A DNA stretch of 64,000 bases from an uncultured virus (IMG/VR IMGVR_UViG_3300024999_000036) (Duplodnaviria > Heunggongvirae > Uroviricota > Caudoviricetes): IMG/VR virus record IMGVR_UViG_3300024999_000036; one strand, written 5' to 3'. The position numbers and the translations under genes were made by a program. The notes below the pieces were generated by a model that did not search any database, was not told where the DNA came from, and saw only the letters and a program-made list of their open reading frames with translations. Positions 2,252 to 7,564 of the stretch are shown piece by piece; position 1 is the stretch's first letter; the number at the start of each line of letters is the position of its first letter.

Positions 2252-3091
2252 TTGTTAATTAGTAAAGAGGTTGAAGTAAAATTACATTCAACAAATATCA
2301 GATATTATGAAGAAAAAGGATACCCAATACCAAGAAAAAAAGATAAACATGGAAGATTTCTAGTTCCTAGAGGATCTACAATTATAGTAAAAATTAAAGA
2401 TTTGCAATTAAAAAGTAATGTAGATATTGATATTGAATGTGATTACTGTGGAATTAAATTTAAAAGAAGGTATGCAGATCATACTTTTATACATAATAAA
2501 GATAATAATATTGATAATGATGCTTGTGAAGATTGTGCAATTTTAAAATTTAAAGAAGTATATTTTTTAAAACATGGAGTTAAAAATCCATTTTGCCAAA
2601 ATGAAGTTAGACAGAAAATAGCAAATACATTTAGTAAAAACAATTCTGTGAGTACATCTAAACAACAAATATATTTACATAATTTATTAGGTGGTGAATT
2701 AAATTATGCTAATGATACTCCTGTTTTAGATATTGCATATCCAGATGAGAAAATTTATCTTGAATATAATGGTGGAGGCCACAACTTAAAAGTTAAATTA
2801 GGTATTGAAACAGAAGAAGAATTTAAAAATAAAGAATTAAGAAGATATCATTATTTAAAAGATAAAGGATGGAAAGCAATATTTATAGATTCTAATGAGG
2901 ATTTTTTACCAAAAGATAATATGATAATTGATATTATTAAAATAGCAAAAGATTATTTATCTAAAGATAATAAATGGATTAAATTTAAAATAGATGAAAA
3001 TAAGGTTATTTATGGTTCTAAATTAGAAGAAATATTTGATTATGGACAATTAAGAAAAATAAAAGATAAAGATATAGAAATAGTTAGTTAA
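2252..3091 (+). CDS. Free-standing homing-endonuclease-like protein (Zn finger plus DUF559/Vsr-like nuclease)
   Basis: CDYC and CEDC pairs; LDIAYPDEKIYLEYNGGGH nuclease motif. Confidence 0.75.
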   Translation: MLISKEVEVKLHSTNIRYYEEKGYPIPRKKDKHGRFLVPRGSTIIVKIKDLQLKSNVDIDIECDYCGIKFKRRYADHTFIHNKDNNIDNDACEDCAILKFKEVYFLKHGVKNPFCQNEVRQKIANTFSKNNSVSTSKQQIYLHNLLGGELNYANDTPVLDIAYPDEKIYLEYNGGGHNLKVKLGIETEEEFKNKELRRYHYLKDKGWKAIFIDSNEDFLPKDNMIIDIIKIAKDYLSKDNKWIKFKIDENKVIYGSKLEEIFDYGQLRKIKDKDIEIVS

Positions 3092-3130: not shown

Positions 3131-4126
3131 ATGCCAAAATCAAAAAAAAACAGTAATCAACAAATAAAGTCACAAACTAAAAAAATATGTGATAATTGTA
3201 AAAGAGAAATTGCATTAACTCAATATTATAATACAAATTCTGTATTATCAGTAGATGGGAAATTAAATATCTGTAAAGTTTGTGTAAAGTCTATGATTGA
3301 TTATAATAATATGGAAACAATATATAAAATTCTTCAATTATTAGATATTCCATTTATATATTCATATTGGAGGTCTGCAATAGAAAAAAATCCAGAAGAT
3401 CCTTGGAGTATATATATAAGAATAGCTAATTCAAAAATGAATGAATTTAAAAAGGGTACTTGGAAAGATAGTAAATTTAAACCTGAAAGTATTAATCCCG
3501 TAAAATTAAATATAGATCAAATAATTACAAGTAATAATCATTTTGATGTTACTAGCGAAATGATATTAAAATGGGGAAATAAATATGATCCAGAAGACTA
3601 TTATGAATTAGAGCAATTTTATAATGATATGCAAAGAACCAATAGTATTGAAACTACTCAAGATATGATTTATTTAAAAAAATTAGCAATTATATCTTTA
3701 AAAATGGATAAAGAATTAGAAGAGGGAAACTATGACGAAGCTAAAAAATTAGGAGATTTATTTTCTAAATATATGGCAGATTCAAAGTTTCGTGCAATGG
3801 ATAAAACTGACGCAGATAAAACTGGTGGTATCAGAAACTTTTGTACTATTTATTCTGAAGTTGAGAAAGATGGATTTATACCTCCTTGGGAATATTATAG
3901 AAAAATAAAAGGCATTAATCAAGATATAGTAGATAAAACAATTATGCATATAGAAAATTTTACTTTAAAACTTAATAAGGCAGAAAAAATGATGTCTCCT
4001 CCATTTGATACACCTAAATTAGAATTGGATGAAATAGATACAGAGAACGTACTAATAATTAATGATATTGAAGTTGATGAAGATGATATAATTGGAGATG
4101 ATGATAACAATGGCATCTCAAAATAA
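3131..4126 (+). CDS. Putative terminase small subunit / pre-terminase Zn-finger protein
   Basis: Directly upstream of TerL and overlapping its start; CDNC and CKVC pairs. Confidence 0.6.
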   Translation: MPKSKKNSNQQIKSQTKKICDNCKREIALTQYYNTNSVLSVDGKLNICKVCVKSMIDYNNMETIYKILQLLDIPFIYSYWRSAIEKNPEDPWSIYIRIANSKMNEFKKGTWKDSKFKPESINPVKLNIDQIITSNNHFDVTSEMILKWGNKYDPEDYYELEQFYNDMQRTNSIETTQDMIYLKKLAIISLKMDKELEEGNYDEAKKLGDLFSKYMADSKFRAMDKTDADKTGGIRNFCTIYSEVEKDGFIPPWEYYRKIKGINQDIVDKTIMHIENFTLKLNKAEKMMSPPFDTPKLELDEIDTENVLIINDIEVDEDDIIGDDDNNGISK

Positions 4127-5898
4127 TTTTAGTAAAAAAAGCAGAAGCATTAAAGATAGTGATACATTTTCTAATCCTCAGAATTTTGAAACTAATAATA
4201 TTAATAATTTACAAATAAAGAGTTTTGAAAATGTTAAAGATCAATGGAGAGAATTATGTAGTTATTTTAGGTGGTATCCCTGACAAATTTCTTGATTTTA
4301 TTTCACCCCCTGATTCTAAAATACAACTATATTATTATCAAAGAGTATATTTAAGAATAATGATGAGATATAGAAAGGTTTTCTTAACTGCTACTCGTGG
4401 AACTTCTAAAAGTTATCTTCAGAATTTAGCTTTTATCTTAAAATGTATTATGTTTGAAAAAACCAAACTTTTTACATGTGCGGTAGGGAAAGAACAAGCT
4501 GCAAAAATTACTGCTGATAATATTAATGATATTTTAGAGCATTATCCATTATTAAGAAAAGAAATAAAAATATTTACTGAAAATAAAGATTATACTAAAT
4601 TAATTTTCTATAATGGGTCAAAATACGATGTCGTTCAAATGCGTGATTCTACAAGAGGTGGTCGTAGGTACGGTGGAGCAATTGAAGAAATTTCAGATAA
4701 AAAATTTGATGGAAATATACTTAATGCTGTTGTAATTCCTCTTATGGCTAATGATCGTATAGCAGCATGTAGTGGTGTTGATCCAGAAGAAATACATAAA
4801 TGTGAATTATATATTACTACAGCAGGTACTCAACAACAATTTTCTTATGAAAAAATGTCAGAAGTTTATCAAGATATGCTTAATGGTAAATCTGCATTTT
4901 GTTTAGGCAATTCTTATGAACTTCCTTGTATGTATGGTCAATTAGATATAGATTTTATTGAAGAATTAAGAGAATCACCAACTTATTCAATATTAGATTT
5001 TATGCGTGAATATCAAAGTATATGGACTGGTTCAAGTTCAGATTCACTTGTTTCAGATGATAAATTGCAAAAGTGTAGAACTGTTCCATTTGCTGAATGG
5101 GAACATTGCGAAGATAATAATGTAATTTATTGTTTAGCATATGATGTTAGCAGAAATGAAGGAGATGAAAATGCTCTTTCTTGTTTGTCAGTTATAAAAT
5201 TAACTCCAAAAAGTAGTGGTAATTTTGTTAAAGAAGTTGTTAATTTATTTTCTATGGAAGGTCAACATGATACTTGGCAAGCAAAGTTTTTAAAGCAGAA
5301 AGTTAAAGAATTTAAATCAAGAATTTTAATTGTAGATGCAAATGGTATTGGAAGTGGTGTTGTAGATCAATTAGTTTTAGATTTAGATGACGGAAATCCT
5401 CCATATAAAGTAGTCAATGATGAGAAAGGAACATGGAAAAAATATGAATCAGATAATGGAATCCCAATGGTATTTGCATTAAAATCCCAAAATAAAGATA
5501 CCAAGAATAGTGATATGATAAATAATTTTATGCAGGTTTTTAATAAGTTAGATGTAGGTTTATTAAAAACTCCATATGAAGGCATAAAAGATTTAGAGAA
5601 AAAATTAAAACATAAAATTAAAAATAGTGATGAATTAGCAAATTTACAAATTCCATATATATTAACAGATAATTTATGTGAAGAAATTATGAATCTTAAA
5701 TATAAGCAGAATGGTAATGAAACAAAGATTGAAAGAATATCAAGAAGGATACAAAAAGATAAATTTTCTGCACTTTTATATGGTTTATGGTGGGTTTATT
5801 TAGAGGAGAAAAAAAATAAAATTCATAAACGTCCAAAAAACATCTCTCCCTCATCATATTTTGCCATAGCAAATAAATCATCAAGAGCAAGAAGATAA
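4110..5898 (+). CDS. terL: Terminase large subunit, two frames joined by a +1 shift at 4278-4284
   Basis: Frame A MASQNNF...YFRWYP* continues in the +1 frame as DKFLDFI. Walker A TATRGTSKS, Walker B GAIEE, ITTAG coupling motif, nuclease motifs LAYDV, IVDANGIG and QKDK. Confidence 0.88.
4269..4284 (+). promoter_or_regulatory. Putative programmed +1 ribosomal frameshift site (prfB-like)
   Basis: AGG TGG TAT CCC TGA C: internal SD-like hexamer, 3-nt spacer, shift-prone codon, UGA-C stop. Confidence 0.8.
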
Positions 5899-5986: not shown

Positions 5987-7564
5987 ATGTCCAACAATCA
6001 AAACCTCTCCCCTACCCTATTCTCATTAAAAAAATCATGGGAATCAGCAAAAAACTTTTCATTATCAAGAATAGGTGGATTATTTACAAATAAACGAAGA
6101 AATTTAAAAAACGTAACAATTGATAAAATAAAATTATGGTTAGGTAATCCACAAAAATATCAAAATGAGATACTTGATTTATCAGATAATCTATATGCAC
6201 CAGAAGGTATCTATAAAGTATTAGTAAACTTAACTACTAATATGGCTACATTAGATAATTATCTTCAACCTGATTTTTCTACAATGCAAAAATTAAAAGA
6301 AGAAATTGCTAATCAAACATCAAAAGAATTATCTGAAGAAGAATCACAAGAGATAATAAATAAACTTTTAAAGAATTTTAATAATGAATTTTCAACAGTT
6401 AGAAAATATATTGATAGTATAGATATAAAGAAAACTGGACGTAGAATTATTGAAAGTTTAGTTAGATATGGTGCTTATTGTGGATTTGAAAAGAATGATG
6501 GTAATTTCCCTTATTTATGGGATTTACCTATTAAATATGTTAGATTGAGATCGATAAAAAATAATCAATACACTGTTGAATTTAACTTCAAATATTTTGA
6601 AGAATTAGCAAGAGATAATGAATTATCTGAATTTGCATGGGATATTTACCCTGATGAATTTAAAATATTATACAATAAATATAAAACCAATTCAGATAGA
6701 TTAAGGTATCCTGAATGGCAACCTTTACCTAGTGATAAAATATGTTGTATTAAACTAGGGGGAGACAATGATACTTTTTTCTTGCCTTTGTTTAGTCAAT
6801 TATTTACTGAGTTGTATTTATTGAATGATTTAATTGATGAGGAGATTGAGAGTTCTAGAGATGATTCAATTAAACTCATAAATATTGAATTTCCACACGA
6901 TAAAGAAACTGGAATTCCACTTGTAGAACCTGATGTTGTATCTCAATGGGTGAATGTTGTAGCTTCAGGTGTCTCTGATAAAGTTACTATAACTGGATCT
7001 CCATATCCTTTACGTGAAATACCATTTAGAAGTATACAAAATGAAAAGACTAACTTAGCTGAATTTGCAAAATCGATGGCATATATGCAAGCAGGAGCAA
7101 ATCCACTACTATTAGGTGGTAGTTCTACTAATAGTTCAGTAGGTATTACGCAAAATCTAATATATATTCAGTCTCTAGTATTTAGTATGTTAGATAAAAT
7201 TCAAAGTTGGTTTAATTACCGTATTTCTAATGTTAATTTAAGAAAGAAATATACTTTTAAATTAAATATATGGAAAACTACATGGTATAACCAAAAAGAG
7301 ATGATTGATAATGAATATAAATTAACAACTATAGGAGGAAGTCTTAATGTTCTTGCTAGTAAGGTGGGACATTCAACAGAAGATTATAATTCAACTTTAG
7401 AATATGAGAATTTGGTAAAATCAAAGGATTTATGGTTACCTCCTATTAATATGAATCAAAATTCAGGAATTACAGATGATGAAGGTGGAAGGCCAAATAT
7501 TGCTGATGGAGATTTAAGTAATGGTGGTATAATTGCTAGAGATGGAGAAACTAACAAAAGGTAA
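5987..7564 (+). CDS. Portal protein
   Basis: 525 aa directly after TerL; SD AAGGAGG; C-terminal GGRP motif typical of portals. Confidence 0.8.
   Translation: MSNNQNLSPTLFSLKKSWESAKNFSLSRIGGLFTNKRRNLKNVTIDKIKLWLGNPQKYQNEILDLSDNLYAPEGIYKVLVNLTTNMATLDNYLQPDFSTMQKLKEEIANQTSKELSEEESQEIINKLLKNFNNEFSTVRKYIDSIDIKKTGRRIIESLVRYGAYCGFEKNDGNFPYLWDLPIKYVRLRSIKNNQYTVEFNFKYFEELARDNELSEFAWDIYPDEFKILYNKYKTNSDRLRYPEWQPLPSDKICCIKLGGDNDTFFLPLFSQLFTELYLLNDLIDEEIESSRDDSIKLINIEFPHDKETGIPLVEPDVVSQWVNVVASGVSDKVTITGSPYPLREIPFRSIQNEKTNLAEFAKSMAYMQAGANPLLLGGSSTNSSVGITQNLIYIQSLVFSMLDKIQSWFNYRISNVNLRKKYTFKLNIWKTTWYNQKEMIDNEYKLTTIGGSLNVLASKVGHSTEDYNSTLEYENLVKSKDLWLPPINMNQNSGITDDEGGRPNIADGDLSNGGIIARDGETNKR

Follow-up and report, generated by a model that had tools for sequence, protein, structure and literature searches.

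A prfB-like CCC_UGA site in the large terminase gene of an uncultured phage: a one-base insertion probably compensated by +1 frameshifting

The +1 frameshift site of the prfB gene consists of a UGA stop codon followed by C, together with a Shine-Dalgarno (SD) stimulator on its 5' side, as described in PMC5009743. Here we consider a 64 kb stretch of DNA from an uncultured virus of the Caudoviricetes (IMG/VR record IMGVR_UViG_3300024999_000036; the whole stretch that was analyzed is called the window below), in which the terL gene, encoding the large terminase, is broken by a change of reading frame at a sequence with the same layout. The optimal spacing of the prfB SD is 3 nucleotides (nt), and E. 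coli prfB has a UAU codon at the spacer position. The codons at the break in terL, CCC_UGA, form a +1 site in the tsh genes of the Listeria phages PSA, A118 and A500, where CCC makes up about 5% of the proline codons, and also at E. coli pheL, where shifting is 15% and rises to 60% with a nascent-peptide stimulator (PMC5009743).

Two other groups of systems are relevant. The bypass insert of T4 gene 60 protects from nicking by the neighboring MobA and moves with it (bioRxiv 10.1101/2022.08.31.505936; PMC5009743), and a 'saviour indel' has been described in the G-run of the herpesvirus thymidine kinase gene, where an indel in the DNA is partly corrected by frameshifting (PMC5009743). As for terminases, recoding has been proposed in 3 of 100 ter genes of Streptomyces phages, including phiHau3 and StrepC.1 (PMC10732093). 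The literature searched gave no account of a terminase gene with a +1 frameshift at a stop codon, and the nearest precedent there is the bypassing proposed for these Streptomyces phage genes. PMC8008677, PMC4524720, PMC7911831 and two genome announcements deal with other genes.

We estimate the probability at roughly 60% that full-length TerL is made by +1 slippage at CCC_UGA and that the site is a compensated indel, i.e., a single inserted base that landed in a pre-adapted context. The break itself is easily described. An ATG at 4110 opens a 57-codon open reading frame (ORF0, MASQ...CSYFRWYP) that stops at the TGA at 4281-4283. The +1 frame is open from about 4216, reads ...GGIP DKFLDFI... 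and continues to the stop at 5896-5898; the third frame is full of stops. The sequence TTT AGG TGG TAT CCC TGA C occupies 4266-4284 (with the preceding TAT codon it starts at 4263), and reading CCC as proline and continuing from the GAC at 4282 gives ...YFRWYP-DKFLDFI.... The features of the site and of the gene are as follows.

4110-4283, + strand: ORF0, the first 57 terL codons plus TGA, in frame 0; fused in frame to the rest of the gene in relatives
4225-4227, + strand: TTG, where translation could first begin inside the +1 frame, as a rival explanation would have it
4236-4305, + strand: 70-nt core of the shifted haplotype, identical in clades A and B (defined below), in which the codons for the KDQ marker immediately precede that for Trp46
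4269-4274, + strand: SD-like AGGTGG (codons Arg54-Trp55), 3 nt 5' of the shift codon and the same in every shifted locus
4272/4273, + strand: position homologous to the group I intron insertion in the related locus L119, between the T and the GG of the Trp55 codon
4275-4277, + strand: TAT (Tyr56), the spacer or E-site codon
4278-4280, + strand: CCC, the shift codon (Pro57); CCCT is one base more than the CCT or CCA of in-frame relatives
4279-4281, + strand: CCU, to which CCC is proposed to slip
4281-4284, + strand: the frame-0 stop TGA plus C, the latter being the third base of the Asp58 GAC in the +1 frame
4282-5898, + strand: terL body in the +1 frame, with an ATPase (Walker A ...TATRGTSKS...) followed by a nuclease; stop at 5896-5898

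The 15-nt motif AGGNGGNNNCCCTGA, searched with at most one mismatch on both strands, occurs once in the window, without mismatches, where 0.07 occurrences are expected and 7 of 100 shuffles contain a match; the occurrence coincides exactly with the sole frame break of terL. Plain CCCTGA is not enriched in the window (11 versus 8.3 expected). Several of the codons involved are rare in the window: CCC accounts for 14 of 427 proline codons, AGG for 60 of 543 arginine codons and GAC for 90 of 1145 aspartate codons, and TGA closes three of the 51 long open reading frames (ORFs), the others ending in TAA (39) or TAG (9). There is no predicted RNA structure downstream, as the region 4260-4380 folds worse than its shuffles (z +1.37), and this fits a shift site of the stop and SD type. 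Two other ways of reading the gene were tried and rejected. Readthrough under genetic code 4 or 25 would meet TGA, TGA, TGA and TAA within 12 codons of frame 0, and these codes are rejected because code 11 gives long ORFs that cover 85% of the window (G+C content 26.1%), nearly all of them on the + strand. Transcriptional slippage was excluded on general grounds, the C run being only three bases long.

As in prfB (PMC5009743), a short frame-0 ORF ends in UGA-C, a hexamer resembling an SD is placed 3 nt upstream, and the P-site codon allows re-pairing at +1; the +1 frame also holds most of the coding sequence of the functional protein, which would be made in full only after a shift. The UGA directly 3' of the shift codon and the C after it are present in all four of the shifted viral contigs, and the junction restores a conserved protein without gain or loss of a residue. 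The two sites also differ. Re-pairing at the terL site would be from CCC_U to CCU, which is non-canonical, the prfB codons being CUU_U; the SD-like element is AGGUGG, which stands at the right distance, yet corresponds to an ancestral Arg-Trp codon pair, and indeed all of the elements of the terL site pre-exist as sense codons. Because the gene encodes a terminase, there is no autoregulatory loop through release factor RF2. Finally, about 87% of bacteria have the prfB site, whereas the terL site is restricted to one young haplotype in a family that otherwise reads terL in frame.

The Listeria tsh genes and E. coli pheL share with terL the CCC_UGA codons and a +1 slip stimulated by the stop (PMC5009743), and the setting is also alike, with low G+C content and rare CCC (about 5% in Listeria versus 3.3% in the window). 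In tsh a structural protein gains an optional extension at its C-terminus by the shift, and both products are useful, whereas in terL most of an essential enzyme would depend on the shift, without which only a 57-residue fragment is made. We consider that the terL site would work like the prfB and Listeria phage CCC_UGA sites, yet is no member of the prfB system. The Streptomyces phages resemble our case in that a large terminase gene is broken by a change of frame and recoding is proposed to restore the protein; as described in PMC10732093, they differ in having a rare UUA codon and short non-coding gaps that would be bypassed, and no +1 site of the stop-codon or SD type. With the herpesvirus 'saviour indel' the terL site shares a DNA indel whose effect frameshifting would correct and a useless non-shift product (PMC5009743); the terL context predicts a far higher efficiency than slippage on a homopolymer, and the terL allele has spread between genomes.

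The interrupted gene is terL. The +1 ORF matches phrog_2 (E 2.3e-20) as well as phrog_15503 (N-terminal half) and phrog_24618 (C-terminal half), and tblastn finds 102 phage records with 40-45% identity that are annotated as terminase, DNA-packaging protein or YonF; a Pfam scan of the terL product gave no family above threshold. In tblastn, residues 39-57 of ORF0 match the codons that immediately precede the TerL match, in the same frame, in phages of the Lactococcus 949-like and Brevibacillus Sundance types, where a single coding sequence spans both parts. From a search of a collection of 5.8 billion protein clusters the best 120 proteins were taken; most of them have 582-598 residues and begin MAS..NFSKK...WRELCSYFRWYPDKFLDF. 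One in-frame relative, P0003, is 94% identical and reads ...WRELCSYFRWYPDKFLD..., which is the exact junction predicted for a +1 shift. Seven residues around the break (W46, S51, R54, P57, D58, F60 and D62) are invariant in 45 close homologs; in a set of 83 homologs with 26% mean identity (down to about 25%), P57 and D58 are conserved to 90% or more, and the break falls within the consensus RxYPDxFxD. By homology, then, the 57-residue ORF0 is the true N-terminus of TerL.

A structural model suggests what this N-terminus contributes. AlphaFold run on the 45 close homologs gave a predicted local distance difference test (pLDDT) score of 58.8 and was discarded, and a model of P0003 built on the 83 diverse homologs (mean pLDDT 89.4) was used instead. 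Residues 1-30 have low confidence and are predicted to be disordered; then come a helix spanning 33-55, a kink at P57 and a second helix (57-64), with pLDDT near 90 or higher throughout. Residues 54-312 of the model align with the P74-26 TerL ATPase (Z 22.1, root-mean-square deviation 2.6, 223 residues), the alignment with HK97 TerL begins at model residue 52, residues 42-308 align with chain residues 102-359 of T4 gp17, and TerL nucleases align with Z of about 17 (17.6 for the G20c nuclease). Together with the phrog_2 match, these alignments identify the succession expected of a TerL, an ASCE ATPase with Walker A and then an RNase H-like nuclease. Since the solved TerL ATPases align from about model residues 52-54, the canonical ATPase starts at about the junction, and according to the model ORF0 supplies an N-terminal extension particular to this family, together with the first turn of the conserved core.

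A first-pass annotation of the window had reported the sequence, its coordinates and its prfB-like layout correctly, and its identification of the gene as a large terminase agrees with the phrog_2 match and with Z scores of 22 to solved TerL ATPases. It had further proposed that a CCC-to-CCU slip yields YFRWYP-DKFLDFI and joins a 57-residue N-terminus to the ATPase, which is the junction that in-frame relatives encode, and it had noted that +1 shifts at CCC-stop are known in phage capsid and tail genes, as is the case for the tail genes of the Listeria phages and, outside phages, for pheL (PMC5009743). Its claim that the shift would be required for the packaging enzyme stands for full-length TerL but maybe not for activity, because the ATPase fold begins at the junction.

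Is the insertion real? The DNA comparison used IMG/VR contigs and, over positions 3900-4700, Logan contigs of four runs from three studies. TTT AGG TGG TAT CCC TGA C is identical in four IMG/VR contigs, which belong to two clades: clade A is the window type, and clade B has 87% TerL identity and 83% nucleotide identity over 4.7 kb. The 13 remaining loci of a first IMG/VR scan are in frame. A second scan retrieved 41 loci, seven of which were dropped because the region is absent; the 34 with usable upstream sequence comprise four shifted, one intron-interrupted and 29 in-frame loci. The first-pass annotation had suggested looking for the same cassette in related terL genes, and it is there, so that not all close homologs are in frame, while some relatives with 93-95% identity are in frame and lack the shift.

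Pattern scans of viral, metagenome and genome collections for the shifted site matched terL in the four known contigs only (one of which is also a JGI metagenome record), and 21 further loci were chance matches in unrelated sequence; a looser pattern gave 38 loci, namely the four shifted contigs, two in-frame terL genes and 32 unrelated sequences. Among proteins, five clusters of 555 residues (P0001, P0002, P0004, P0005 and P0006) start in the +1-frame leader, ...INGENYVVILGGIPDKF, and come from 5, 2, 1, 10 and 7 contigs, respectively, of JGI, ENA and Logan origin. The metagenomes in which such sequences occur are from groundwater, soil and sediment.

In the Logan runs X1 and X3, the contigs that span the site match it without a single difference; X1 may be the source sample. 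The sole contig at the site in X5 is in frame and has one base less at 4280. In X6, contigs lacking one base at 4280 account for 99.5 of 285.4 depth units and are in-frame strains with many other differences, and the carriers of the insertion, with about 186 of 285 units, are the majority form. Homopolymer indels are a common artefact, which speaks for an error of sequencing or assembly in the CCC run. Such an error is effectively refuted, however: the run has only three bases, its depth in X6 is high, the same allele is present in independent assemblies of other studies and in several pipelines (IMG/VR, ENA and Logan), and it is carried by two clades that differ at 17% of their bases. The insertion is an inherited and abundant allele that coexists with in-frame relatives.

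The in-frame relatives also show where the elements of the site came from. Among 30 distinct in-frame sites, the arginine codon is AGG in 9, AGA in 10 and CGT in 9, the proline codon is CCA in 17 and CCT in 11, the aspartate codon is GAT in 23 and GAC in 7, and the spacer codon is TAT in 23. For example, the in-frame locus L018 reads AGG TGG TAT CCT GAC, which is the window sequence minus one C, and in 11 of the 30 sites CCT is followed by GAY, so that one added C would make CCC TGA. By this comparison the SD-like hexamer, the TAT, the stop and the C 3' of it are ancestral R-W-Y-P-D sense codons. L018 and the codon counts thus imply that a single insertion, from CCT to CCCT, made the whole prfB-like layout, and the argument that its elements were assembled piecewise by selection is removed. 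A random disabling indel could fall anywhere in 1.8 kb, and the one that persists sits where a known +1 signal results.

These results bear directly on the idea that the cassette was selected to tie TerL synthesis to host RF2 in the manner of prfB autoregulation; the first-pass annotation had proposed that TerL output would depend on host RF2 activity. Every sequence feature of the prfB site as described in PMC5009743 is present, AGG, CCC and GAC are all rare codons in the window, and 70 nt around the site are identical between the clades. But the same codons occur in in-frame relatives (AGG in 9 of 30 and GAC in 7 of 30, with L018 identical except for one C), the shift is absent from most relatives, even from some that are 93-95% identical, and the 70-nt identity is explained equally well by a young haplotype of single origin. 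We consider an evolved regulator of this kind unsupported and very unlikely.

The history of the allele can be followed a little further. Three additional stand-alone ORF0-like proteins end in ...YFRWYP: P0121 is clade B, P0122 has an N-terminus like that of locus L006, and P0123 has a P0003-like N-terminus joined to a clade-B-like end. The residues KDQ precede WRELCSYFRWYP in all four shifted forms and in none of the 103 proteins whose reading frame continues unbroken across the site. This shared marker indicates that the shifted haplotype arose once and was then recombined into at least four backgrounds; the recombination tracts end about 45-60 nt upstream of the site. Local trees are unresolved. 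Upstream of the site the shifted group forms one branch (support 52/28), and downstream it needs two changes, with the in-frame L006 falling weakly with clade B. The trees hint at mosaicism, and phylogeny alone neither shows nor excludes a single origin.

Comparison of clades A and B shows that the phase of substitution switches at the site. Upstream (4116-4277) there are six synonymous and two non-synonymous differences in frame 0 versus one and eight in the +1 frame; downstream (4282-4700) the numbers are three and 34 in frame 0 versus 28 and six in the +1 frame. Judged by this pattern, both parts derive from functional coding sequence. The switch is no proof of selection after the shift, since recombination could have imported the flanks from in-frame relatives.

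The spread to several backgrounds, taken with the high abundance, argues that the carriers are viable. The alternative is that terL is inactivated and that the carriers are decaying prophages, or are complemented in co-infections, or that the allele is driven by an endonuclease. Complementation is conceivable, as in-frame strains occur in the same samples, and the spread does resemble gene conversion with an endonuclease gene linked to it. A defective allele would nevertheless hardly be the majority form in X6, or be observed in about 25 contigs from three sources and at least four backgrounds. Moreover, the 1.6 kb of terL downstream of the site contain no stops or other disabling changes, with 121 synonymous and 67 non-synonymous codon differences between the clades, and the neighboring genes are intact, so we regard this explanation as quite unlikely.

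How would the slip work? In ribosomes that initiate at ATG 4110, CCC would come to occupy the P site and UGA-C the A site. Slow recognition of UGA-C would allow a share of the peptidyl-tRNA(Pro) to re-pair from CCC to CCU, and the AGGUGG 3 nt upstream may aid the slip by pairing with the tail of the 16S rRNA. GAC (Asp58) would be read next, giving full-length TerL with the family sequence ...YFRWYPDKF..., and ribosomes that terminate would release a 57-residue peptide. AGG TGG TAT CCT GAC was there beforehand and the extra C gave a prfB-like site, so that the indel was presumably viable only at this place. Because a terminase acts catalytically, modest shifting could suffice. Whereas the sequence comparisons document the homology, the inheritance of the allele and its single origin and spread, the slip itself, its efficiency, the effect of the SD-like element and any dependence on RF2 are inferred.

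Several observations weigh against this interpretation. In AGGUGG a U takes the place of the G or A found in prfB-type SDs, and pairing with the anti-SD is possible in two registers, which makes the effect of the element uncertain. In clade B the ATG at 4110 is ATA, and ORF0 could start there only from upstream in-frame ATGs (M-E-M...). The DNA of the shifted allele comes from two clades only, and the phase test may reflect the imported in-frame flanks instead of selection after the shift. Lastly, with the canonical ATPase fold starting at about residues 52-54 of the model and residues 1-30 of ORF0 predicted to be disordered, a TerL that lacks ORF0 might still be functional.

The last point leads to a split gene, in which TerL would be made without any shift from the internal TTG at 4225 in the +1 frame, with an unrelated 19-residue leader in place of the N-terminal 57 residues, and ORF0 would act in trans or be dispensable. 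For this it can be said that the minimal solved TerLs (P74-26 and HK97) align from the junction onward, that residues 1-30 have low confidence in the model, that TTG 4225 is present in both clades and that PHROGs contains split terL forms (phrog_15503 for the N half and phrog_24618 for the C half). The signals for such a start are poorly kept, however. TTG 4225 is not preceded by a conserved SD, and ATG 4231 and the AAAGAG are lost in clade B, where they read ATA and AAAAAA; the start would also lie inside a translated ORF. The overlap region has two substitutions between the clades, which change V to I in frame 0 but M to I and L to S, both non-conservative, in the leader. TerL would lose the helix at 33-55 and the invariant residues W46, S51 and R54, or have them only as a detached part, and it would be a coincidence that the break falls exactly on a known shift motif. 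We consider the split gene unlikely, and slippage at CCC_UGA the better account of the same facts.

The surroundings of the site add a further aspect that was missing from the first-pass annotation, namely a connection with homing introns and endonucleases. In L119, an IMG/VR relative of the window terL, about 1.27 kb of inserted DNA (L119:941-2210) follow TTT CGG T in the gene. The insert contains a 333-residue ORF of the LAGLIDADG type (PF14528, 34.2 bits versus a threshold of 22.5) and a group I intron core (RF00028, 63.1 bits versus a gathering threshold of 50, E 2.9e-15), and joining the upstream exon to AT TAC CCA GAT... would restore ...YFRYYPDKF.... An Rfam score, a LAGLIDADG ORF and a predicted splice that restores the frame thus identify a group I intron in L119; the window has none, nor does any Rfam family match in its 64 kb. 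In the window, this insertion point corresponds to 4272|4273, 6 nt before CCC. LAGLIDADG enzymes have recognition sites of 14-40 bp, and so the extra base lies within the span that such an enzyme would be expected to contact.

There is also a gene for a candidate endonuclease nearby.

2252-3091, + strand: candidate free-standing homing endonuclease gene (phrog_12131 'homing endonuclease', E 7.7e-25)

It encodes 279 residues and lies between the 943-2082 ORF and the terS-like gene, about 1.2 kb upstream of the shift site; apart from phrog_12131, it has no significant sequence match in Pfam, NCBIfam or the PDB. Its distribution among relatives is patchy. Full-length homologs are present upstream of the terS-like gene in all four shifted contigs, and among 30 non-shifted loci, some of which are short upstream, partial matches were found only in L096, L106 and L110. 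As only two independent shifted lineages are represented by DNA, we claim no statistics for this linkage. The copies of clade A (2252-3091) and clade B (L112:796-1773) are 38% identical, while the adjacent gene is 90% identical, which suggests that the endonuclease gene was replaced at this locus.

These patterns make it possible, although we put this forward tentatively, that the extra base is an immunity, or 'saviour', indel against a homing endonuclease. This stretch of terL would be a homing target, the one-base insertion would disrupt the recognition site of the nuclease, and the resistant haplotype would spread into sensitive relatives by repair-driven gene conversion, surviving only because a prfB-like +1 site arises with it. 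It would be a minimal, 1-nt counterpart of T4 mobA and gene 60. In T4 recoding compensates an insertion in a conserved essential gene that has a free-standing homing endonuclease gene near it, as it would here. The differences are that T4 bypasses a 50-nt insert whereas the single base would be read by a +1 slip, and that in the window the terS-like gene lies between the endonuclease gene and the terL site, so that the link here consists of co-occurrence and proximity to an intron site.

If the slip occurs, an essential packaging enzyme of a phage depends naturally on a +1 frameshift stimulated by a stop codon. The case would then also show that a recoding site can originate in one step and afterwards pass from genome to genome, which bears on the origins of recoding signals. 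The site is also a compact natural cassette of CCC_UGA shifting with an upstream SD that could be used in low-GC systems. The adjoining intron-homing site and the linked endonuclease gene make it testable whether recoding is a cheap defense of conserved genes against homing nucleases. On the practical side, gene callers truncate such terL genes, as the 555-residue calls without the true N-terminus show.

Other terL homologs display patterns that touch on mobile insertions. P0125-P0127 are small ORF0-like proteins that diverge right after ...CSYFR (YFR+L..stop) and probably mark the same intron insertion site in three more lineages; a pattern for this ...YFR-L.. interrupted type had no match in viral contigs. 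TerL calls of 507-515 residues (P0016, P0058, P0065 and P0086) start with M(M/L)RYRKVF, about 30 residues past the junction, and P0058, with a longest contig of 35,238 nt, may represent the downstream portion of an intron-split gene that has P0125, on a contig of 35,149 nt, as its ORF0. P0135, P0143, P0149, P0163, P0199 and others are homologs of 700-1,180 residues that match TerL in two stretches, the second of which resumes near query residue 100 in the Walker A region, a pattern that would be expected for inteins or other P-loop insertions. The terL gene of this phage family seems to be a hotspot for mobile insertions.

The window is DNA of a groundwater phage of the SPbeta/YonF-like group, and no tRNA genes were found in its 64 kb. 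The genes on either side of terL are intact.

3131-4126, + strand: YonG-like gene (phrog_3314), the probable small terminase partner, called the terS-like gene above, with a 17-nt overlap with the start of ORF0
5987-7564: portal gene (phrog_2739)

In comparison with L012, the tail of the terS-like gene has an 18-nt indel at 4082-4099, just upstream of the ORF0 start. The ORF at 943-2082 (379 residues), present in clade A only among the loci fetched, is weakly similar to TerL ATPases (28% over 110 residues, E 2e-4; phrog_15503, E 6.9e-6) and could be a distant ATPase paralog or a fragment derived from terL.

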